A stretch of 64,000 bases of DNA from Candidatus Poribacteria bacterium (GTDB lineage Bacteria; Poribacteria; WGA-4E; WGA-3G), in contig JAJDWI010000010.1 of assembly GCA_022825665.1 (NCBI GenBank), positions 2,912 through 66,911 on the forward strand, given 5' to 3'. Numbering within the stretch: the first letter of the stretch is position 1; every line of letters starts with the position of its first letter. Under the pieces are notes generated by a model. That model had not been told where the DNA came from. It searched no databases and saw only the letters and a program-made list of their open reading frames with translations. The position numbers and the translations under genes are program-made. Positions 3,953 through 59,751 of this stretch are shown here, piece by piece.

Positions 3953-4368
3953 TATCTCATAAATCGTTAAACTGATCTCTTGCAGAAAATCACATTTTCA
4001 TCGTAGGGTGAAGTTGCCTCACTCCATAAGCGTGAATTTTGCGAGGAACGTTAGTGCATCTGATACACCTTTCGCCCCTCTGGGGCTAAGGTTATAATGT
4101 ATCACGTGTTCTATACACCTTTCGCCTCTCCGAGGCTTTAGTGTGCATGTCGTAGGTCGCTATGCACCGACCTACGATAATGTAAGAGGCGCAATGAATT
4201 GCGCGACTACAAACGCATCTTCTCCTTAAACTGACGCTTATACGAACGGGGAGACCCGTCCCTACGATAATGTAAGAGGCGCAATGAATTGAGCGACTAC
4301 AAACGCATCTTCTCCTTAAATTGACGCTTATACGGGGAAACCCGTCCCTACAAGTGATTTATGAGATA
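3953..4368. repeat. TIR-bounded mosaic repeat block (MITE-like)
   Basis: tatctcataaatc (3953-3965) is the exact reverse complement of gatttatgagata (4356-4368). The interior is built from hairpin modules shared with 52698-52836 and 48900-49030. Confidence 0.75.
4171..4334. repeat. Tandem duplication of a 74-bp unit at a 90-bp period
   Basis: cctacgataatgtaagaggcgcaatgaattg.gcgactacaaacgcatcttctccttaaa.tgacgcttatacg occurs at 4171-4244 and 4261-4334 with 2 mismatches. A related unit lies at 48985-49030. Confidence 0.9.
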
Positions 4369-4394: not shown

Positions 4395-5405
4395 TTAGTC
4401 TACAACTTCGACCATGAAAGTAGGAAACAGAATTTGATCAGCATGCTTGAGCTGTCCGAAAATCTGATATTTTCCTGCCTTTGAAAAAGTGGTCATGAGC
4501 ATCACCTTAGGTCCAAATTTCTCTGGAGTAATACCTTGATGTTGATGCCCTGTTGATTCTTTCTTTTTCATTTTATGTTCAGCATGCGGATCTTTCTCTG
4601 CCATTTTTTCCATTTTCCCACTCATAGGAACTGTACCATGCGTATGTAGTATACCATCTAAACGGGTACTTACGATAGCAAAATGCATCGGTGCATCTAA
4701 AAATGGAACAAGATCGGTGATCGGTTTTCCATCACGTGAAAAATGATAGGTAATATGAACCATCTCACCCACCTTAATCTGTTCAGGCACTTCTATTTTC
4801 ACCTGATATTCGGAAGTGCCATTTTCATCGGTAACGGAAATCGCTTTTGTGAACCGATCTCCACCTTCTTCCTTATAACCGAAAACTGTTTTTTCCGTAC
4901 GAAGGTCTTCAGATATATCCGCCATCTTCTTCTCACCCGCGACATCTACATACAAGTATTTTGCGAATTCGTTATCTGCGGTCATCACATCAAGTGCTAA
5001 TATGTATCTGCCGGCAAAGGGAAATGTGAAGTGCACTGTATAAGTTCCTTCAAGTTCCGCCATCATATCACGCGACTCAAAATCTTCTGGGTGGACATGT
5101 CCAACAGTCTGTAAATTCTCACTGACGATTAGCACGTGGAGAATCCGATCATGATGTATCATCAAATCGGTAAACGGTTCACCCATTGCATCGGTGAGTT
5201 TGAACATGAGAGTTGCAGGTTTCCCAACCTCAATTTTCTGCGGTTCAGTGTGAAGTGCAACATTTAAGGTGCTGGTTTCTTGTTTCTTATGTGTGTCATG
5301 CTTTGCATGTTGTTCAGCATAACTGAAGTTTACAAATAACAACATGGTCAAGACGATTGCTATGGCATTACGAAAAATGTAAAACGTGAAATTCCGGGCT
5401 TGCAT
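4395..5405 (-). CDS. Secreted His/Met-rich protein with two tandem Ig-like repeats (possible metal binding)
   Basis: It has a signal/TM segment and an internal duplication: IEVGKPATLMFKLTDAMGEPFTDL...LHVLIVSENLQTVGHVHP versus IKVGEMVHITYHFSRDGKPITDL...MHFAIVSTRLDGILHTHG. A Met/His/Lys-rich loop (MSGKMEKMAEKDPHAEHKMKKK) is also present. Confidence 0.4.
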   Translation of the reverse strand: MQARNFTFYIFRNAIAIVLTMLLFVNFSYAEQHAKHDTHKKQETSTLNVALHTEPQKIEVGKPATLMFKLTDAMGEPFTDLMIHHDRILHVLIVSENLQTVGHVHPEDFESRDMMAELEGTYTVHFTFPFAGRYILALDVMTADNEFAKYLYVDVAGEKKMADISEDLRTEKTVFGYKEEGGDRFTKAISVTDENGTSEYQVKIEVPEQIKVGEMVHITYHFSRDGKPITDLVPFLDAPMHFAIVSTRLDGILHTHGTVPMSGKMEKMAEKDPHAEHKMKKKESTGHQHQGITPEKFGPKVMLMTTFSKAGKYQIFGQLKHADQILFPTFMVEVVD

Positions 5406-5521
5406 TATTATTCCTCCAAGTATAATCCTTAGTAAAATAGGTATAATTAATAGTCAATTTCCATTGCAAGTGTAAGTAGATGGACAGAATAGTCGTTAAA
5501 TCTTCTGATTGAATGTACTCT

Positions 5522-5947
5522 TTAAGAACGGGTATTAGGAGGACCGCGGCGGGAAAGGTTGCGGTTGAGTGATGAGATAACTAATTTTGGTGGAAGAGTG
5601 AAATGAAGTAATTGTTCCTGAGCAACTGGCTGAGTTAAAAATAATGGAACGTTAGGGACAAGGTGATGTTCCACAGGTTCACGAACAGAGTCGGCATTGT
5701 ATGTATCATTAGGAAGAACAATTTCTAAACCTAATACACAGCACGATGTGTCTGTCTCTGACGGCGTTTCAGACTCCTCTGTTGCATCAGTCTTCGCTTT
5801 TTGGCAACAAGACGAAATAGATTCAGCAGCCGACATACTTCTGTTGCACATTTTGTGTTCATAAGCCGCACAGAAAAGCGGACATACGAAAGTAACACAA
5901 ACCAGTGCAACAAGTAATATCTGATATTGCCAATATTTATGTGTCAT
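5522..5947 (-). CDS. Small Cys-rich membrane-anchored protein, function unknown
   Basis: It has an N-terminal TM helix with several Cys, and CC pairs at SSCCQK and TSCCV. It is the first gene of the minus-strand cluster and is divergent from msrP. Confidence 0.4.
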   Translation of the reverse strand: MTHKYWQYQILLVALVCVTFVCPLFCAAYEHKMCNRSMSAAESISSCCQKAKTDATEESETPSETDTSCCVLGLEIVLPNDTYNADSVREPVEHHLVPNVPLFLTQPVAQEQLLHFTLPPKLVISSLNRNLSRRGPPNTRS

Positions 5948-6179
5948 TGCTCAAAACTCCACTGCTTCTTAATGATAGGGAACAAATTTATTCTTTTAGG
6001 GTATTATACACCACAATCTGAAATAGTTGCAAGAAAATAAGTAACATCAAAACACAGTCCTAAATAAGGATTGCACATGAAACAGGTAACCTGTATAATG
6101 TGTATCATACAATTAACCCAAATATAATATAGTTTCACAGTGTGAACATATAAGAGAATAAAAGTCAAAGGAGAATCCG

Positions 6180-7139
6180 ATGGCAAACATAAAGATTCCA
6201 AAAGGATGGGAGATCCCAGAAAACCGTATTACTCCTGAATCAGTTTATATTAATCGTAGAAAGTTCATCAAAGACCTCGGCATAGTAGGAGCGGGGGCTT
6301 TATCACTGTTCGGTTCGAGTGCATGTGCACAGAATAAAGGTGTAGCAAAACAACTTGAAGCTTATCAAAAAGAAAAACTCTCAGCAGTAAAGAATGAAAA
6401 TTTCACTGTCACAAGACCACAAACTAAGGAAATCGTCGCTGCAACCTACAACAACTTCTATGAGTTCACATCCTCGAAAAGTACCGTCTGGAAACGCGTT
6501 GAAAGGTTCAAAACGCGTCCGTGGGAAGTTGAAATTACCGGTCATGTTGAAAATCCGATGACCATAGATGTGGATGACTTAATTAAACAGATGCCACTTG
6601 AAGAGCGTATCTATCGTTTTCGCTGTGTGGAAACTTGGGCAATGGTAGTACCGTGGATCGGTTTCCCGATGAAAGCACTCCTTGAAAAAGTGCAACCGAA
6701 ATCTTCTGCAAAATACGTTCGGATGGAGACGTTTTTTGACCCTGATGTGGCATCACATCAAAACGATGCGCGTCTGCCGTGGCCCTATGTTGAAGGCTTA
6801 ACGCTCGCGGAAGCCATGAATGAACTTACACTTATGGTTGTTGGTATCTACGGACATATTCTACCACCACAACACGGCGCACCTCTGCGATTGATTGCTC
6901 CTTGGAAATATGGGTTTAAAAGCATCAAATCAATTACCAGTATAGAACTGACTGACAAAAAACCACGTAACTTTTGGAATGTTATTCTTCCGAGGGAATA
7001 CGGTTTTGAAGCAAACGTGAATCCAAAAGTTCCACATCCCCGTTGGTCACAAGCTTCTGAATGGATGATTGGCTCAATGGACCGATATCCGACAAAGATA
7101 TACAACGGTTACGGTGAATATGTAGCGCACCTTTACTAA
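6180..7139 (+). CDS. msrP: Protein-methionine-sulfoxide reductase catalytic subunit MsrP (YedY, molybdopterin)
   Basis: It has a Tat-type signal (RRKFIKDLG). NNFYEF, EERIYRFRCVETWAMVVPWIGFP, QHGAPLRLIAPWKYGFKSIKSI and HPRWSQA track E. coli MsrP along its whole length. Confidence 0.9.
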   Translation: MANIKIPKGWEIPENRITPESVYINRRKFIKDLGIVGAGALSLFGSSACAQNKGVAKQLEAYQKEKLSAVKNENFTVTRPQTKEIVAATYNNFYEFTSSKSTVWKRVERFKTRPWEVEITGHVENPMTIDVDDLIKQMPLEERIYRFRCVETWAMVVPWIGFPMKALLEKVQPKSSAKYVRMETFFDPDVASHQNDARLPWPYVEGLTLAEAMNELTLMVVGIYGHILPPQHGAPLRLIAPWKYGFKSIKSITSIELTDKKPRNFWNVILPREYGFEANVNPKVPHPRWSQASEWMIGSMDRYPTKIYNGYGEYVAHLY

Positions 7140-48715: not shown

Positions 48716-49030
48716 ATAGGTGTCAATTTAGTGATTCTTGTCCATCTGAATTGCTTGTTGTCTGAACCAAGATGGACAGGATTACAGGATTTCCAAGATT
48801 AGGAGTTGGTGAGTATATATTCCGTTGTCCAGGATGAAAGGTTACCTTTTGCAAAGGAACATTGGCATACAAGTCTCTTATCCTGAAAATCTTAGTTCAG
48901 ACATAATACATGTCGTAGGTCGTTTTGCTCGTTCCGACCTACGGGACTGTATGTGAACATACAGGCGAGGAAACCTCGCCCCTGCGGAATGTCCGAGACG
49001 TAATGAATTAAGCGACTACAAACACATTTC
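48716..49030. repeat. Mosaic of dispersed repeat modules
   Basis: Region 48716-48805 matches 1039-1127. tgtctgaaccaagat pairs with atcttagttcagaca (about 48889-48903). The hairpins gtcgtaggtcg...cgacctacgg and caggcgaggaaacctcgcccctgcgg, and the tail gtaatgaattaagcgactacaaac, match modules in 3953-4368. Confidence 0.8.
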
Positions 49031-52697: not shown

Positions 52698-53006
52698 TAT
52701 CTTAAAAATCGTTTACCCGATCTCTGCAGAAGATCATATCTTCATCGTAGGGGCGAGGTTTCCTCGCCTCAGAATCAGAAAGGGAGTTTCTAATCGGGCG
52801 GGGAGACTCCGTCCCTACAAGTGATTTATGAGATACGCTCGCTCCGACCTACAGGACTGAATGTGAGAATGCGGGCGAGGCAACCTCGTCCTACGATGTT
52901 GTCTGAACCAGGATTTACAGGATAAGAGGTCGCGATACGGAGAGTTCTCCTACAAAGGGAAGCTTAATATTGAAAATAATAGGATTTGGAAAACTAAATG
53001 GCTCTA
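52698..53006. repeat. Mosaic of dispersed repeat modules
   Basis: Region 52698-52836 is a short version of the 3953-4368 element, with the same ends (tatcttaaaaatc...gatttatgagata). Hairpin + CTAC modules follow, then a 78-bp module (52929-53006) that matches 55219-55296. Confidence 0.8.
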
Positions 53007-53050: not shown

Positions 53051-53956
53051 ATGAGAGTTTTTATTCAAATAGGTCATGGCATTATTGGAGCTGGTGTAAT
53101 ATCGTTCCTCTGTATCTTCCAAGCAGGTAGTTTCGGTGAAGCGCGGCATACTATTAGCATCATAGGGGCAATTGCTATTCTTATTGCAAGTCTCTATCTT
53201 CTGAGAAGTCGTTGGATACGGTGGGGGAATCGACAGTTATGGCTAAAATACCATCAACGGCTTGCGTCTCTTGGTCTGTGTCTTGTGCTGTTCCATTCTG
53301 CATTTTATCCGCTTGCGTGGCATTCGTGGCTAACCTTTATTCTGGCATTGTCAAATTTAGGCACAGGAATAGCCGTCAGTCTTACTGCTCGTAAAACACG
53401 CCAGATACTGCTGAGATTCCATCTCATACTCGCACCAATTCTGTTGATTAGTATAGTCTTTCACGGACAAGCAAAACTTGACCATGATGACTTCTTTCCA
53501 CTTTCCGATGTGCATGATGTTCCGTGTGCGAAATGCCATACATCTGATCCCTTACTTTTTCATGTTGATACCACACCACAAAATGATTTGGACACTTCGG
53601 ATACGATTCCAGAAGATTTACATTGGTGGTTCATACAACACGATATAAAGATATCTCCGTCTGCTAAAATATCGGTCAGGGAAATCAGCAAGACATGGAA
53701 AATTGATGATGAAGAAAATCACCGTAGTTATATTGCCAAGAAAAAAACGGATCAACTTGCACTCTTTGCCGATTCTCCTTACCGCAGTTACACCTGCATC
53801 ACCTGCCACGAACATAACACACCAGAAATAATTTCTGCCCATGAACTGCACGGTGTTACTGATTATCACAGATGTCTTGTTTGTCATCAGACTGAATTAA
53901 ACGGTACACGATACGGCAGACAACGCACAAATTGGGACTACGACCCGAATTGGTAG
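53051..53956 (+). CDS. Membrane protein: 5 TM helices with conserved-looking His residues, fused to a C-terminal tri-haem c domain
   Basis: TM helices span about aa 1-140 (LVLFHSAFYPLAWHSW, ISIVFHGQ). Three CxxCH motifs are present: CAKCH 159-163, CITCH 249-253 and CLVCH 275-279. Confidence 0.5.
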   Translation: MRVFIQIGHGIIGAGVISFLCIFQAGSFGEARHTISIIGAIAILIASLYLLRSRWIRWGNRQLWLKYHQRLASLGLCLVLFHSAFYPLAWHSWLTFILALSNLGTGIAVSLTARKTRQILLRFHLILAPILLISIVFHGQAKLDHDDFFPLSDVHDVPCAKCHTSDPLLFHVDTTPQNDLDTSDTIPEDLHWWFIQHDIKISPSAKISVREISKTWKIDDEENHRSYIAKKKTDQLALFADSPYRSYTCITCHEHNTPEIISAHELHGVTDYHRCLVCHQTELNGTRYGRQRTNWDYDPNW

Positions 53957-55361: not shown

Positions 55362-56738
55362 ATGTCTACTTATGATGTCGGGATTATTGGTGGAGGACCT
55401 GGGGGTTATGTTGCTGCCATAAGAGCAGCTCAGTTGGGAGGCACTGTTTGTCTCATTGAAAAAGGTCAGTGGGGTGGTACTTGCCTAAATAGAGGATGTA
55501 TTCCTACAAAGACCCTGTTTTCTATAGCACATCTTGCGGAGCAGGTTCGCAATACACCTGCTCTAAATGCCCAAAACACAACCGTTGACTATTCACAAAC
55601 ATTGACACATAAAACGGAAGTCATTGAAAAGTTAACAGGTGGGATAAGTCAACTTCTTAAACGGAATAAAATCCAAACCTTGATTGGTAATGCCTCGCTT
55701 ACGGATAAAAACACAATTGTGGTCAATAAAACAGATGGGACATCCGAACAAATTAAGGTGAAAAACGTTATTATCGCTACTGGGTCTGAACCTGCAGATC
55801 CGCCTGTTTTTGAGATTGATGAGACCGATGTGTTGACAACGACTGGAATCCTTAACCTGACAGAACTACCTGAAAGTCTAATTATCGTTGGAGGTGGTGT
55901 TTCAGGTTGTGAATTTGCTTCTATCTTCAATGCATTTGGTTGTAAAGTGACCGTGTTGGAATTGCTTCCTACCATTTTGGCAACAGAAGATGTTCAAGTT
56001 GTTCGTCATATCCAACTTTTCATGAAACGAAAAGGTATTTCTATCCAGACAGGTGCAAAAATTACCAGTGTCAAGAAGTCGGAAGAGGGTGTTACTGCTG
56101 TTCTTGAATCTGGTGAAAGTGTTAAAGCAGAAAAGATGTTGGTATCAATCGGTAGACGTTACAATTCGGAAGGAATAGGGTTGGAAAAGGTTGGCATCCA
56201 CATAGACAACGGCAAAATCGTTGTGAATGAAAAGATGCAGACGAACATTCCCGGAATTTACGCTGTCGGTGATGTCGCGAGTCGATATCTGTTGGCACAT
56301 GTTGCTTCTGCTGAAGGAAAGGTTGCCGCGCAAAACTGCCTTGGTGAAACAACTGAGATGGATTATCAAGTTATCCCATGGTGTGTTTTCACGTTACCGG
56401 AAATTGGGCATGCTGGTATGACAGAAAAAGAGGCTACAGATGAGGGTTATGAGGTTAAGGTCGGTAGATTCCCTTATGGTGCAAGTGGCATGGCGTTAGG
56501 GATGGGAGAAGCAGACGGATTCGTGAAGACTGTCATGGATGCTGATAGTGGTGATATACTCGGGGCACATATTGTTGGTGTCCATGCTTCAACGCTTATT
56601 CATGAGGCTGCAGTTGCAATACGTATGGGTGCATCTGCGATGGATATTGCGCATACTGTGCATGCACATCCTACGCTTTCTGAGATGGTGATGGAATCTG
56701 CTGAGGCTGCGTATGGTAGGGCAGTGCATGTGTTTTAG
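55362..56738 (+). CDS. lpdA: Dihydrolipoyl dehydrogenase (E3)
   Basis: It has GGGPGGYVAAIRAAQLG, the redox-active CLNRGCIPTK and HAHPTLSE. No E1 or E2 genes are adjacent. Confidence 0.9.
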   Translation: MSTYDVGIIGGGPGGYVAAIRAAQLGGTVCLIEKGQWGGTCLNRGCIPTKTLFSIAHLAEQVRNTPALNAQNTTVDYSQTLTHKTEVIEKLTGGISQLLKRNKIQTLIGNASLTDKNTIVVNKTDGTSEQIKVKNVIIATGSEPADPPVFEIDETDVLTTTGILNLTELPESLIIVGGGVSGCEFASIFNAFGCKVTVLELLPTILATEDVQVVRHIQLFMKRKGISIQTGAKITSVKKSEEGVTAVLESGESVKAEKMLVSIGRRYNSEGIGLEKVGIHIDNGKIVVNEKMQTNIPGIYAVGDVASRYLLAHVASAEGKVAAQNCLGETTEMDYQVIPWCVFTLPEIGHAGMTEKEATDEGYEVKVGRFPYGASGMALGMGEADGFVKTVMDADSGDILGAHIVGVHASTLIHEAAVAIRMGASAMDIAHTVHAHPTLSEMVMESAEAAYGRAVHVF

Positions 56739-56816
56739 GTTGTGGTCAGTCAACAATTATGATAAAATATATCAAGATTACAACAAGTATTCACTTATTC
56801 AAAAAAGGATTGCAAT

Positions 56817-57908
56817 ATGACAGCTTATGCATTTTGGAATAACAAAGGTGGTGTCGGTAAGAGTTTTTTAAGCTTTGTTGCAGCAACTGAGTATGCCCGT
56901 ACTTACCCGGATACAGATGTCTATGTAATAGATCTTTGTCCACAGGCAAATATTTCCGAGATGCTGTTATTATATTCCGAAATTTTAATTAATACCAGTG
57001 AACAACATCCAATGTTTACTTATGATGTCCTACGCGAAAATTTTGATCCAATACATAAACTGATTGGACAGACACCACGGGCTACAGTCGCGGGGTACCT
57101 TGAAGCACGTCTAAATTCTCCGTTTGAACCAATCAAGAATGTGTCTCCTTATGTGTGCCGACCTATAGATTTTAACAAAAAATTACCAGTAAATTTACTT
57201 TTAGTTTGTGGGGATTACCTGTTAGAAATCTTATCAGAAGCGATCCGTCAAACATCTCAACTCGCTGTCCCAGTAGATGCTTGGAAACAAGTCCTCAGTT
57301 GGGTCAAAGATTTAACAGTTGCATTACGTAAGCAGAGTGGAAACAGAGATGCCCTTTTTATTCTTGACTGTAATCCGAGTTTCGCTATCTATACCCAATT
57401 AGCTCTTGTGGCAGCTGACAACCTTGTTGTCCCGCTTACTCCTGACGACAGTTCGCGTCGAGCTGTAGAAAATGTCGTTGCTTTACTTTATGGGTACAGT
57501 ATAGATGACCCAAAAATAGAAACTTATGCAAGTATCAACTTTGCCAATAAGGCAAAGGAAGAAGGCTTAGATGTTCCAAGGCTACATACTTTCGTCAGCA
57601 ATCGTGTAACTCTCTATCGTAACAAAGCGAGTAGAGCTTTTGAGGCAGTAAGCAAGTCAATTAAGGAGACAGTGGATGTACTTCATAAAAAACATCGACA
57701 AATCTATGCAACTCCAAAAGAGTTACCAAGTAAAAGGTTCATAGAGATACCAGACTATCATAGTGCTTGTGTCGTTATGACAGTTAAAGGCATACCCTTA
57801 AGTAGTCTTCGACACAATTTTATGGTTCATGGCGAACCAGTTCAACTTGATCCTAAACGTCTAGAACGGTATCGAAAAGCACTCACAGAATTTGTTGATT
57901 GTCTCTAA
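56817..57908 (+). CDS. ParA/MinD-superfamily P-loop ATPase, unusually long (363 aa)
   Basis: It has a deviant Walker A with signature Lys (NNKGGVGKSF), a Walker-B-like LFILDCNPSF and VVPLTPDDSS. Extra insertions and a C-terminal extension distinguish it from ~210-260-aa ParA proteins. Confidence 0.75.
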   Translation: MTAYAFWNNKGGVGKSFLSFVAATEYARTYPDTDVYVIDLCPQANISEMLLLYSEILINTSEQHPMFTYDVLRENFDPIHKLIGQTPRATVAGYLEARLNSPFEPIKNVSPYVCRPIDFNKKLPVNLLLVCGDYLLEILSEAIRQTSQLAVPVDAWKQVLSWVKDLTVALRKQSGNRDALFILDCNPSFAIYTQLALVAADNLVVPLTPDDSSRRAVENVVALLYGYSIDDPKIETYASINFANKAKEEGLDVPRLHTFVSNRVTLYRNKASRAFEAVSKSIKETVDVLHKKHRQIYATPKELPSKRFIEIPDYHSACVVMTVKGIPLSSLRHNFMVHGEPVQLDPKRLERYRKALTEFVDCL

Positions 57909-57917
57909 AGGTATCTC

Positions 57918-58496
57918 GTGTCATCACCAGCAGCATCAACGTATATAACAGCAGTAGAACGTATACAAACACTTCGTAAGACAGCAACGGATAAGCGATT
58001 GCGCCCAATGTCGCGTGATGAGATACAGGTTTTCTACCACGCAGCACTTACTGCTTACGTAGCTGCATGGAACGCGTATATAAAAAACTTGATTACTGAT
58101 TTCTACGATGTAATATCAGATCCATCGCAATCTAAATTTCGCGCCATTTACACAATCGCTCGAAAAAGAGCAGAAAACGCAATAACAAGATTTAACACGC
58201 CAAATTCTGAGAATACACGTAATATTCTTATTCAATACACAGGATATGATCCAATTAACACCACACTTTGGATTCAACGTAGAAAATTAGATGATATAGT
58301 AGAAGTTCGCCATAGTTTCGCACACGGTTTTGATATGCCATCTAATGTTTGGACACAATCATTAAGCAGAAGAGGACAGTTAACAAGTAAAGCCATTCAA
58401 GAAACTGAGATGTTCTTCAGAAAGCTTGTTAAAATTACGGATAAGGGTATGAAAAAACATATTTTGTTAACTTACGGACTGACAGGATTTTGGTAA
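57918..58496 (+). CDS. Hypothetical helical protein with a HEPN-like Rx4H motif
   Basis: GTG start lies 9 nt after the ParA-like stop. It carries EVRHSFAHG (R131...H136, nt 58308-58325). The HEPN assignment is inferred from the motif and its context only. Confidence 0.45.
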   Translation: MSSPAASTYITAVERIQTLRKTATDKRLRPMSRDEIQVFYHAALTAYVAAWNAYIKNLITDFYDVISDPSQSKFRAIYTIARKRAENAITRFNTPNSENTRNILIQYTGYDPINTTLWIQRRKLDDIVEVRHSFAHGFDMPSNVWTQSLSRRGQLTSKAIQETEMFFRKLVKITDKGMKKHILLTYGLTGFW

Positions 58497-58527
58497 TTAA
58501 ACAAGAAATTAGCATATAGATATTTGT

Positions 58528-58794
58528 ATGAACCGTAGAAAAATACCGCAAATAGACTCAATTCAAGAACTCGCCAATTTTTGGGATACACATGATTTAA
58601 CCGAATTTGAAGATGATCTTGAGGAAGTGGAAGAACCTGTGTTTGAACTTCAAACTGAACTGATTGTTCCATTACAACCTGATGAGTTAGAAGCTCTAAC
58701 AATACTTGCGAAAACCCATGACACTTCTCCTGTAAATCTAATTCGTGAATGGGTTCTTGAACATATTGATAATACAGCCGCAGAAGTTCAATGA
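58528..58794 (+). CDS. BrnA/CopG-type ribbon-helix-helix protein (antitoxin-like)
   Basis: It has an N-terminal FWDTHDLTEFEDD box and a C-terminal RHH pattern (LIVPLQPDELEALTILAKTHDTSPVNLIREWVLEHI), as I recall for PF12441-type antitoxins. Confidence 0.6.
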   Translation: MNRRKIPQIDSIQELANFWDTHDLTEFEDDLEEVEEPVFELQTELIVPLQPDELEALTILAKTHDTSPVNLIREWVLEHIDNTAAEVQ

Positions 58795-58842
58795 TTGAAT
58801 TATATTAAAAATAAAGGATTCGGAGTGAGTCTGATTACACTC

Positions 58843-59751
58843 TTAGAAACGCACCGCTTCCTGCAGTTCCTCATACCGCGCCTCAATTTCGCTAAACTGC
58901 ACAGACTTCTGCCGATTGATGCTGAAATCTTCAATGTTAAACGAGGCGACAACAGTACCATACATCATCGCTTTACGGATTGAACCTTCCGATACATCAT
59001 CTACAGATGCCAAATAACCCATAAAACCACCTGCGAAACTATCGCCTGCGCCTGTAGGATCAGTAACTTGTGTAAGTGGATATGCTGGTGCGCTAAAAAA
59101 GGATGATTCCGTGATACTGATTGCACCGTGTTCCCCTTTTTTGACAATAACTCGCTTAGGTCCATAACGTAAGATTGCACGTGCTGCCAGCAATAGATTA
59201 GATTCACCCGTGAGTAATTTTGCCTCACTATCATTTAGGATAAGTATGTCCACGCGTTCTATTGTTTTCTCTAACGCTTCTCGTTCCTCATTTATCCAGA
59301 AATCCATCGTATCACAGACAACCAGTTTAGGGTTTGATGTTTGCTCAATAATGCTCAGCTGCAATTGCGGAGGGTCGTTCGCTAAAAATAGGTAAGAAGT
59401 GTCTTTGTAGGAATTGGGTAAGGTCGGGTGAAAATCAGCAATAACATTCAATTCTGTGAAAAGCGTGTCGCGCACGTTAAAATCTTCAGAGTATCTACCA
59501 CCCCATCGGAAAGTTTTACCATTTTCCACACGTGTCAGTCCTTCAAGGTCAATTCGCTTGTCATTGAGAGAGTCTGTATATGTCTGTGGAAAATCAGCCC
59601 CAACTACACCGACGAGACGGACAGGACTACAAAAAAAACTTGCGGCAACGGCAGCATAAGTACCAGAACCTCCAAGGACATCTTCAACCCGTTTCTGTGG
59701 GGTTTCTACGGTATCTAAAGTAACCGTTCCGACAACTAAAACTCCCATCAT
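58843..59751 (-). CDS. PfkB-family carbohydrate/nucleoside kinase (adenosine-kinase-like by context)
   Basis: It has VVGTVTLD, GGSGTY and the C-terminal TGAGDSFAGGF. I prefer the start at ATGATG 59751, which is preceded by GGAG. It is the last gene of the metK-ahcY operon. Confidence 0.7.
   Translation of the reverse strand: MMGVLVVGTVTLDTVETPQKRVEDVLGGSGTYAAVAASFFCSPVRLVGVVGADFPQTYTDSLNDKRIDLEGLTRVENGKTFRWGGRYSEDFNVRDTLFTELNVIADFHPTLPNSYKDTSYLFLANDPPQLQLSIIEQTSNPKLVVCDTMDFWINEEREALEKTIERVDILILNDSEAKLLTGESNLLLAARAILRYGPKRVIVKKGEHGAISITESSFFSAPAYPLTQVTDPTGAGDSFAGGFMGYLASVDDVSEGSIRKAMMYGTVVASFNIEDFSINRQKSVQFSEIEARYEELQEAVRF

Follow-up and report, generated by a model that had tools for sequence, protein, structure and literature searches.

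An ATPase gene of the ParA/MinD type (ORF1) and the HEPN-domain gene that follows it (ORF2) form a conserved two-gene unit, a strictly co-inherited pair that behaves as a horizontally mobile operon. This dyad is probably a conflict module of an abortive-infection-like or toxin–antitoxin-like kind, in which the ATPase would regulate a HEPN RNase. A third gene, ORF3, that lies close downstream does not belong to the unit.

Organization of the locus

The dyad is located on the forward strand of the window (the whole 64-kb stretch of DNA that was analysed), within a cassette of three co-directional ORFs separated by gaps of 9 and 31 nt. ORF1 (56817–57908) encodes 363 amino acids from an ATG start, ORF2 (57918–58496) 192 amino acids from a GTG start, and ORF3 (58528–58794) 88 amino acids from an ATG start. 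Direct reading of the sequence confirmed the three ORFs, the gaps, and every motif quoted in the initial annotation at their coordinates. The cassette is flanked on one side by lpdA (55362–56738, + strand) and on the other by convergent genes for a PfkB kinase, ahcY, and metK. A scan of positions 56500–59000 for promoters and terminators yielded a number of sites no higher than in shuffled sequence.

The comparison covered 235 related loci, 75 in one set and 160 in the other, which span more than 10 phyla.

ORF2 is a HEPN-family protein

ORF2 (57918–58496, + strand) is a RiboL-PSP-type HEPN protein and the predicted effector of the module, a putative metal-independent endoRNase. It matches PF18735 (HEPN_RiboL-PSP) over residues 29–176 with a score of 41.9 bits (gathering cut-off 28.4), and PF18735 is the sole family matched by 24 of 24 diverse ORF2 relatives. 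PF18737, the MAE_28990/18760 family, scored 14.5 bits, under its cut-off of 26.8, and a match to a Las1 motif was weak (E=0.1).

The HEPN catalytic motif, R131-H-S-F-A-H136-G137 (Rx4H; 58308–58328, + strand), occurs in the sequence EVRHSFAHG, with R131 through H136 encoded by nucleotides 58308–58325. Among 97 intact dyads, R131 is conserved in 96 and H132, H136, and G137 in all 97, and the Rx4H motif is invariant in alignment A4, down to 22% identity. The assignment of ORF2 to the HEPN family in the initial annotation, made from this motif, is borne out by its conservation and by the PF18735 score. A second family-invariant motif, NTPN (N93-T94-P95-N96; 58194–58205, + strand), lies upstream of it; N93, T94, and P95 are invariant in alignment A4 and are found in 94, 96, and 97 of the 97 dyads, respectively. 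ORF2 homologues also share the N-terminus M-x-S-P-A-A, and this conservation supports the GTG start. The family is rare, with 336 representatives among 1.84 billion.

An AF2 model of ORF2 (alignment A1) was predicted to be all-helical, but at low confidence (mean pLDDT 45.4). Sequence and profile searches of the PDB with ORF2 (alignments A1 and A4) returned no meaningful relative. The genes neighbouring two distant PF18735 members (L072 and L074) were uninformative as to a partner.

ORF1 is an enlarged ParA-like ATPase

ORF1 (56817–57908, + strand) is a ParA/MinD-type (SIMIBI) ATPase that belongs to a HEPN-linked clade, and is predicted to be the regulator or sensor of the module. It matches PF13614 (AAA_31; 45.8 bits, cut-off 27) and phrog_164 (‘ParA-like partition protein’; 111 bits); PF01656 (CbiA) scored 22.1 bits, under its cut-off of 25.4. 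A profile search of the PDB led to 3pg5, delta’, ParA, and Soj.

The deviant Walker A motif read from the sequence, NNKGGVGKS (residues 8–16, signature lysine K10 and K15; 56838–56864, + strand), is invariant in alignments A2 and A3 and in the 97 dyads. Walker A’ is D39-x-C-P-Q, and a Walker B-like motif, FILDCNPS (residues 181–188; 57357–57380, + strand), contributes D184, which is present in 97 of 97 dyads. Conservation of K10, K15, D39, and D184 is ~100% (96–97 of 97 dyads). The motif VVPLTPDDSS is found as well.

The protein is ~100 amino acids longer than the solved ParA and Soj chains (255–276 amino acids); this excess and the profile matches agree with its earlier description as an unusually large ParA-like ATPase. 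The enlarged size is a family trait, since relatives range from 342 to 374 amino acids. A lineage-specific variable insertion of ~22 amino acids (residues ~53–75; 56973–57041, + strand), evident in alignments A2 and para_div, is missing in the forms of 342–345 amino acids. Pfam scans of residues 78–178 and 215–363 gave no match. The AF2 model of ORF1 (alignment A2) had a pLDDT of 44.7, too low for a reliable structure; the AF2 input alignments were too shallow, with 18 sequences at ≥60% identity.

The ATPase and HEPN genes are strictly linked

In metagenome and viral loci (second scan), a HEPN gene is directly downstream of the ATPase gene in 40 of 40 cases in which the latter is at least 42% identical to ORF1. 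The same arrangement was seen from the other side in genome loci (first scan), where the ATPase gene is immediately upstream of the HEPN gene in ~70 of 71 informative loci. The linkage is confined to this clade, as none of 103 more distant ATPase relatives has a HEPN gene next to it.

The junction between the two genes suggests translational coupling. It reads TAA-AGGTATCTC-GTG (57906–57920, + strand), in which the stop codon of ORF1 is followed by AGG, a Shine-Dalgarno-like triplet, and then by the ORF2 GTG, located 9 nt past the stop. Such a junction of stop, AGG, and GTG is found in most loci from Poribacteria, Caldilineaceae, and cyanobacteria, and proteobacterial loci have an overlapping TGATG or TAAATG junction.

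Distance matrices computed for the ATPase and for the HEPN protein are correlated (Mantel r=0.87, p≤0.001; 97 dyads). Mean identity is 0.63 for the ATPase versus 0.48 for the HEPN protein, with the ATPase the more conserved in 97% of pairs. This is unusual for an antitoxin and counts against the function that we propose below. Frameshifted copies of the dyad are frequent among related loci. At a few loci (L028 and L071), the ATPase gene is disrupted and the HEPN gene intact; these sequences come from MAGs, in which indel errors are possible.

The dyad is mobile and occurs within type III restriction-modification operons

Comparison with a sister genome (L083) delimits the mobile unit. By blastn, L083 is 94% identical to the window up to position 56737 and 93% identical from position 58528 on, with no match between. 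The indel unit bearing the dyad (56738–58527, + strand) is 1.79 kb in length, bounded precisely by the lpdA stop on one side and the ORF3 ATG on the other. The sister genome has in its place 614 bp of filler DNA, which matches dispersed repeats elsewhere in the window; remnants of ORF1 or ORF2 were sought in this filler and none was found. Across the related loci the flanks of the dyad vary, the pair is spread over more than 10 phyla, and four dyads sit on IMG/VR contigs. Most copies from outside the Poribacteria lie amid housekeeping genes. The dyad is a horizontally mobile two-gene operon that enters varied chromosomal sites as an indel.

In at least 24 Poribacteria loci, the dyad is located between res and mod of a type III restriction-modification (R-M) system, with ResIII/REase_III domains encoded on one side and N6_N4_Mtase/MTase_III domains on the other. 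The order in these operons is res, ATPase, HEPN, a variable slot, and mod, and the slot holds an Mrr-like nuclease in nine loci. One locus (L015) carries the whole res–dyad–mod block in the same site between lpdA and pfkB that is occupied in the window. The dyad of the window is a stand-alone copy in this hot spot, and no homologue of Res, Mod, or Mrr was found in the 64 kb. The absence of an R-M neighbour from this copy, along with the housekeeping surroundings of most copies outside the Poribacteria and a null result with PADLOC v2 for ORF1 and ORF2, stands against a conflict function.

At 34–41% identity, the relatives of ORF1 are solo genes of temperate phages and plasmids. One such sister-clade ATPase gene directly follows the CI repressor gene in phage phi297. 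The position of this solo clade beside phage repressors hints at a broader conflict role of the ATPase family.

Proposed function of the dyad and alternatives

We consider it probable that the dyad is an ATPase-regulated conflict module, composed of a ParA-like dimerising ATPase (ORF1) and a translationally coupled RiboL-PSP HEPN endoribonuclease (ORF2). The HEPN protein would be the RNase effector, or toxin, produced at lower output from its weak GTG start. The ATPase, translated first and in excess, would bind the HEPN protein and keep it inactive in a nucleotide-dependent manner. A cue derived from a phage or plasmid, or failure of a linked R-M system, would then switch the state of the ATPase and release the RNase, which may cleave tRNA, mRNA, or rRNA and so arrest the infected cell. 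Such a module would act as a second line of defence in the manner of PrrC and RloC, with the NTPase and the nuclease on separate polypeptides.

An unlikely alternative, reminiscent of Las1-Grc3, is that the HEPN RNase depends on the ATPase as a subunit that activates or targets it, making the pair a two-component effector; the ATPase could, for example, bring the HEPN protein to foreign DNA or the nucleoid. The higher conservation of the ATPase points in this direction, as do the weak Las1 motif match of ORF2 and the solo phage and plasmid ATPases, which imply that the ATPase has a function of its own. The disrupted ATPase genes beside intact HEPN genes, if real, speak against the ATPase as an obligate antitoxin and are equally compatible with it as an activator, but their origin in MAGs makes indel errors possible. 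Also against activation is the order of the genes, regulator first and effector second with a weak GTG start, which is typical of antitoxin–toxin operons.

More doubtful is the idea that the HEPN-linked ATPase is an orphan ATPase captured by the host from a phage or plasmid and kept as a guard or decoy, providing R-M-coupled abortive infection with a ParA-type sensor. The invader would be sensed via its homologous ATPase, partner, or DNA, or by way of a type III R-M enzyme beside the dyad being inactivated, and the ATPase would respond, according to its nucleotide state, by releasing or activating the HEPN RNase.

It is improbable that the two genes are a housekeeping pair for RNA metabolism with no conflict role. 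Many copies outside the Poribacteria do lie amid genes such as Dus, radical SAM, FtsK, and lpdA, and protein conservation is high. However, the pair is patchily distributed and can be present in one and absent from the other of two near-identical genomes, the family is rare, frameshifted copies are frequent, and the dyad is found embedded in R-M operons and on viral contigs.

A function in DNA partition or positioning, which the initial annotation had offered as an alternative, is very improbable. In that case ORF1 would serve as the ParA motor, ORF2 as an adaptor with a non-catalytic HEPN fold, and ORF3 or another protein as the centromere binder, and ORF1 does match ParA profiles (phrog_164, and Soj, ParA, and delta’ in the PDB) and has distant relatives on plasmids and phages that are annotated as ParA. 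No HEPN gene accompanies these plasmid and phage relatives, however, and ORF1 falls far short of the NCBIfam equivalog for ParA_partition (NF041546; 38.5 bits, cut-off 180) and of TIGR03453 (19.4 bits, cut-off 348). ORF2 retains an invariant RNase motif, neither a ParB nor an RHH partner is conserved, and the dyad occurs inside R-M operons. The locus lies on the chromosome, and the sites vary. A search around the cassette found no iterated repeats of the centromere type, and positions 56500–59000 hold only chance two-copy repeats. The chromosomal context and the lack of such repeats are in keeping with the principal proposal of the initial annotation, that of an uncharacterised conflict-type module and not an ordinary par locus. 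Genes of the ORF1 type should not be named partition proteins.

Should the dyad prove to be an ATPase-gated HEPN RNase, it would be a tractable two-gene addition to the defence and toxin–antitoxin modules, and a ParA-type ATPase would have a job unrelated to DNA segregation. The module is missing from current defence-finder catalogues. The idea of RNase back-ups borne by R-M systems is long-standing and little tested. The res–ATPase–HEPN–slot–mod operons of sponge symbionts offer a natural test of whether such back-ups fire once restriction is defeated, which would generalise PrrC.

ORF3 is a resident neighbour

ORF3 (58528–58794, + strand) is an orphan RHH gene, unrelated to the dyad and present before it. 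It matches PF12441 (CopG_antitoxin) with 32.3 bits (cut-off 28) and contains an FWDTHD box and a C-terminal RHH; a PDB search returned nothing meaningful. No BrnT or other toxin ORF adjoins it, its upstream neighbour being the independently inserted HEPN gene and its downstream neighbour the convergent pfkB. Its description in the initial annotation as a BrnA/CopG-type RHH protein without BrnT therefore holds. ORF3 has 958 homologues, chiefly from Poribacteria, which lie at other loci. DUF5677, the product of a gene that neighbours some of these relatives, was considered as a HEPN protein, which would have rescued an RHH–HEPN pairing, and was rejected (hhalign probability 0.2).

The initial annotation had envisaged a tripartite toxin–antitoxin or abortive-infection module, with a HEPN toxin under joint control of ORF3 (as transcriptional autoregulator or antitoxin) and the ATPase; the comparison of loci largely refutes this reading. 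In its favour are the shared direction and close spacing of the three genes, the membership of ORF3 in an antitoxin family, the lack of a dedicated toxin partner for ORF3 here, and one related locus (L092) in which an ORF3-like gene likewise follows the dyad. In L092, however, that gene is frameshifted and split from the HEPN gene by a 245-amino acid gene. ORF3 is missing from the other 234 of 235 loci (it is present at 0 of 75 and 1 of 160 in the two sets), and its relatives elsewhere have other neighbours, such as DUF5677 and a PIN-like gene. The sister genome L083 has ORF3 (94% identity) in the corresponding place but lacks ORF1 and ORF2, and the edge of the indel coincides with the ORF3 ATG.

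Comparison with known systems

A dyad of a ParA/Soj ATPase and a MAE_18760-family HEPN protein was predicted to be a toxin–antitoxin system in 2013, with the ATPase proposed as antitoxin or regulator and the HEPN protein as RNase toxin (Anantharaman, Makarova, Burroughs, Koonin, and Aravind 2013, PMC3710099). The dyad described here has the same architecture, that is, a gene for a SIMIBI ParA/Soj-like ATPase and a co-directional gene for a stand-alone Rx4-6H HEPN protein. The HEPN families are sisters but differ, that of the dyad being RiboL-PSP (PF18735, 41.9 bits) and not MAE_28990/18760 (PF18737, 14.5 bits), and the entries for RiboL-PSP-HEPN in that work are just ‘operon with ParB’ and a fusion to endoRNase L-PSP (PMC3710099). 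The present analysis shows, in addition, the strict linkage specific to this clade, the location inside type III R-M operons, and a sister clade of solo genes in phages and plasmids.

A literature search on ParA with HEPN found only the computational papers of 2013 and 2020 and no experimental work. In PADLOC-DB v2, ORF1 and ORF3 had no match and ORF2 only a spurious 13-bit match. The claim that the cassette matches no named system accordingly stands for experimentally named systems and for PADLOC, but the HEPN family is in Pfam and a ParA/Soj–HEPN pair had been predicted in 2013.

The orphan ParA-like ATPases of phages and plasmids (phrog_164; Pseudomonas phage phi297 gp27 and E. coli phage-plasmid WP_050594318) are homologous to ORF1 over its full length at 34–39% identity and share its family-specific middle and C-terminal regions. 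They differ in having no HEPN partner (0 of 103) and in being located in lysogeny or accessory regions. ORF3, for its part, shares the CopG_antitoxin family PF12441 and a C-terminal RHH with the BrnT/BrnA type II toxin–antitoxin system; unlike BrnA, it has no adjacent toxin gene, and it is independent of ORF1 and ORF2.

The dyad resembles HEPN-MNT (HepT/MntA) in pairing a small stand-alone Rx4-6H HEPN protein with a nucleotide-using enzyme, encoded upstream, as its presumed neutraliser. The partner in HEPN-MNT is a minimal nucleotidyltransferase, whereas in the dyad it is a ParA-like ATPase and no MNT gene is present.

HEPN proteins linked to R-M systems in the manner of PrrC were also proposed in 2013 (PMC3710099). 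The likeness of the dyad to PrrC and RloC is that of an NTPase regulating a HEPN RNase, a role that is predicted for the dyad. PrrC lies in the type Ic R-M locus EcoprrI, as the dyad lies inside an R-M operon in at least 24 related loci, and the stand-alone copy in the window is paralleled by RloC-like stand-alone copies. The R-M system of PrrC is type I, however, whereas that linked to the dyad is type III (res...mod). PrrC and RloC are anticodon nucleases with a fused SbcC/Rad50-like ABC ATPase, whereas the ATPase of the dyad is of the ParA/MinD type and is a separate polypeptide.

Cassette organization and family assignment

Three co-directional ORFs, spaced by 9 nt (ORF1–ORF2) and 31 nt (ORF2–ORF3), lie between lpdA on one side and the convergent pfkB-ahcY-metK genes on the other. 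ORF1 (56817–57908, + strand) encodes 363 amino acids, ORF2 (57918–58496, + strand, GTG start) 192 amino acids, and ORF3 (58528–58794, + strand) 88 amino acids. The initial annotation had described this layout, and its positions and gaps were borne out on re-reading, as were all of the motifs it quoted. In profile searches, ORF1 matched AAA_31 (PF13614; 45.8 bits, curated threshold 27), ORF2 matched HEPN_RiboL-PSP (PF18735; 41.9 bits, curated threshold 28.4), and ORF3 matched CopG_antitoxin (PF12441; 32.3 bits, curated threshold 28). ORF1 scored far under the cut-offs of the NCBIfam partition-ParA equivalogs, and a PADLOC search of ORF1–ORF3 gave no significant match.

The large size of the ATPase is a family trait. 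Homologs are 342–345 amino acids in most phyla and 360–374 in many Poribacteria, the latter due to a variable ~22-amino acid insertion after the Walker A’ region. Recognizable ParA homology is limited to the N-terminal 200–210 residues of ORF1, and its middle insert and C-terminal ~150 amino acids matched no Pfam family. The best PDB match was 3pg5, an uncharacterized 361-amino acid ParA-like protein; delta’, ParA, and Soj ranked next. AF2 models of ORF1 and ORF2 were unusable, the input alignments being shallow, and the predicted HEPN fold of ORF2 and the nature of the ATPase extensions are based on sequence profiles.

ORF1 and ORF2 form a conserved dyad

The module comprises two genes, ORF1 and ORF2 (the dyad), which are tightly coupled, co-inherited, and mobile. 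An ORF2 alignment, scanned against one genome per species, yielded 75 loci, distributed among Poribacteria (the window’s own lineage), Caldilineaceae, several cyanobacterial genera, Binatia, Acidobacteriota, Planctomycetota, Alpha- and Betaproteobacteria, Chloroflexota, and Actinomycetota. An ORF1 homolog (53–83% identity) was directly upstream on the same strand in ~70 of the 71 loci having a close ORF2 homolog; the exception, L002, is an uninformative truncated contig. An independent second scan, with a diverse ORF1 alignment (A3) as query, detected at least 546 relatives in metagenome contigs and 150 in IMG/VR viral contigs, the latter including four dyads. A HEPN gene was adjacent in all 40 loci whose ATPase shared 42% identity or more with ORF1 and whose downstream sequence sufficed, and in none of the 103 loci with an ATPase of 34–41% identity. 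The distance matrices of the two proteins are correlated across 97 intact dyads (r=0.87, Mantel p≤0.001), and the genes therefore travel together. At the junction in Poribacteria, Caldilineaceae, and cyanobacteria, the stop codon is followed by AGG and a GTG start 9 nt past the stop; in proteobacteria the genes overlap as TGATG or TAAATG. This conserved junction points to translational coupling in which the HEPN gene has a weak start codon. HEPN proteins of this family are rare, with 336 representatives at E≤1e-3 in 1.84 billion clusters, and nearly all representatives are stand-alone proteins of ~200 amino acids.

The 34–41% sister clade, whose homology to ORF1 is full-length, consists of solo genes in phage-plasmid-like replicons of E. 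coli, Klebsiella, and Salmonella, in Xanthomonas and Cryobacterium plasmids, and in temperate phages. Examples occur in Pseudomonas phage phi297 (L256, 3459–4511), E. coli plasmid pEC190329_2 (L080, 4956–6011), and L176–L251. In phi297, the ATPase gene comes right after the gene for a CI-like repressor, both on one strand; it is annotated ‘ParA-like partition protein’ yet has no partner gene. The slot directly after a CI-type repressor is the classic position of lysogeny-expressed exclusion or defense genes, and the solo ATPase could be such a gene.

ORF3 is a resident gene separate from the dyad

The initial annotation had proposed a tripartite toxin-antitoxin or abortive-infection module, and ORF3 was found at none of the loci of the ORF2-based scan. 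L083, a sister genome belonging to the same sample series and 93–94% identical to the window in its flanks, has the order lpdA, a 614-bp filler, an ORF3 ortholog (94% amino acid identity), and pfkB. Nucleotide homology between the two ends at 56737, the lpdA stop codon, and restarts exactly at the ORF3 ATG (58528). The two genomes are thus polymorphic for the presence of the dyad, a 1.79-kb difference lying upstream of a resident ORF3. An ORF3-like gene occurs in just one of 235 other loci (L092), where it is frameshifted, has a 245-amino acid membrane protein encoded between it and the HEPN gene, and sits in a slot that gathers passenger genes. As L083 keeps ORF3 without the dyad and an ORF3-like gene appears once in 235 loci, the tripartite reading is not supported.

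The filler replacing the dyad (L083, 2387–3000) is built from a dispersed repeat family also present in the window (~941–1035, 1269–1306, 4171–4331, 48908–49030, and 52741–52897). The units are intergenic, 40–127 bp in length, 80–93% identical, and on both strands, a pattern suggestive of MITE/REP-like elements at hot spots of recombination.

ORF3 has 958 homologs, mostly in Poribacteria, where the family is strongly expanded. Relatives elsewhere have other neighbors (a 260-amino acid unknown protein, DUF5677, or a weak PIN-like gene). A second conserved CopG locus in Poribacteria (L084–L089, L252–L255) encodes the 260-amino acid protein, CopG, in some cases a 162-amino acid PIN-like protein, DUF5677, and a WD40/trypsin protein. 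DUF5677 was considered as a HEPN protein and had no detectable HEPN likeness.

Linkage to type III restriction-modification

At least 24 Poribacteria loci have the dyad between a ~900-amino acid ResIII helicase-nuclease (res) and a ~750-amino acid N6_N4 methyltransferase (mod), with all genes on one strand; PADLOC calls these REase_III and MTase_III (388 bits), respectively. The slot between the HEPN gene and mod holds an Mrr-like nuclease (9 loci) or the p178 and p185 gene pair (~10 loci), or is empty. At the window’s lpdA-pfkB site, L015 carries the whole res-ATPase-HEPN-mod block, L004, L032, and L057 have the dyad alone, and L007 and L014 add p178 and/or Mrr, so the site is a variable defense islet in this lineage. 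The window, in which no Res, Mod, or Mrr homologs were found across 64 kb, has the minimal version of this islet.

The uncharacterized p178 (~160–180 amino acids; TM helices at the N terminus and an acidic tail) and p185 (~150–185 amino acids; no Pfam or PADLOC match) genes recur together with the dyad/R-M block, either in the slot (L001, L013, L020, L023, L028, L031, L035, L043, L054, and L092) or upstream of the ATPase (L007 and L014). The L092 slot also holds two paralogous 245-amino acid membrane proteins; these, p178, and p185 may be further accessory defense components. Elsewhere in the window, a 301-amino acid ORF (53051–53956, + strand) with no Pfam match on record has several hydrophobic helices at its N terminus together with three CxxCH heme-binding motifs (CAKCH, CITCH, and CLVCH), and may encode a membrane-anchored multiheme cytochrome.

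Beyond Poribacteria, the dyad has inserted into unrelated gene surroundings: between two methyltransferases in Hormoscilla, and next to IS200, TPR-CHAT, FtsK, Dus, or radical-SAM genes in others. In Microcoleus and relatives, it is flanked by a pair of large co-directional NRPS genes (C-A-MT-PCP and C-A-PCP-TE) at ~4950–6600 in each of L037, L041, L042, L044, L046, L047, and L051, an odd yet conserved location for a putative defense module.

Conserved residues and proposed mechanism

Among the 97 intact dyads, ATPase K10, K15, D39, and D184 are essentially invariant, and the HEPN protein retains R131 in 96 and H132, H136, and G137 in all. R131, H132, A135, H136, and G137 are still invariant in a HEPN alignment extending down to 22% identity, as are an N-T-P motif, W51, Y54, and R101. 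Judged from these residues, both proteins appear to be active enzymes. The HEPN protein would be a metal-independent endoRNase effector, since this role of the Rx4-6H motif is established in RNase L, PrrC, and RloC (summarized in PMC3710099). As the first protein translated, probably in excess, the ATPase would gate it in a nucleotide-dependent manner, and an infection cue or R-M failure would release the RNase and cause growth arrest.

The direction of control has a serious, if rather unlikely, rival, in which the ATPase acts as an activator with Las1-Grc3-like logic. It is kept because the ATPase is more conserved than its HEPN partner in 97% of pairs and because 2–3 loci (including L028 and L071) have a disrupted ATPase and an intact HEPN gene; the reverse occurs in ~5 loci. 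Several dyad copies are frameshifted, and copies with one frameshifted or truncated gene (L028, L032, L052, L053, L058, L062, L066, L069, and L071) may be genuine pseudogenes or reflect indel errors in long reads, a distinction that bears on which partner is the toxin. Partition of DNA, the other reading offered initially, is disfavored: centromere repeats were not found around the cassette, neither a ParB nor an RHH partner is conserved, the actual partner is a predicted catalytic Rx4H HEPN protein, and the setting is chromosomal and R-M-linked. The patchy, polymorphic distribution and frequent pseudogenes argue against a housekeeping role.

Comparison with known systems

No experimental study of a ParA+HEPN pair was found in the literature, and the dyad is not in PADLOC v2. 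PF18735 takes its Pfam name from the 2013 HEPN survey, whose entries for it are only an endoRNase L-PSP fusion and an ‘operon with ParB’ (PMC3710099). The same survey predicted a ParA/Soj-HEPN toxin-antitoxin dyad for another HEPN family, MAE_18760 (PMC3710099); ORF2 falls short of the model for that family (14.5 bits, cut-off 26.8). The dyad can be classed with the NTPase-linked HEPN conflict modules, a computationally known kind. The features that appear to be new are strict clade-specific linkage of the ATPase and HEPN genes, conservation of the coupling junction, the res-ATPase-HEPN-slot-mod operon of sponge-symbiont lineages, and the solo phage/plasmid sister clade of the ATPase. As predicted from sequence, the dyad is a solid, testable candidate system, though of a kind that specialists would expect. 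The proposed ATPase-gated HEPN scheme agrees with both the ParA/Soj-HEPN toxin-antitoxin proposal and the PrrC-like ‘R-M plus HEPN’ multi-pronged defense model of Anantharaman et al. 2013 (PMC3710099).
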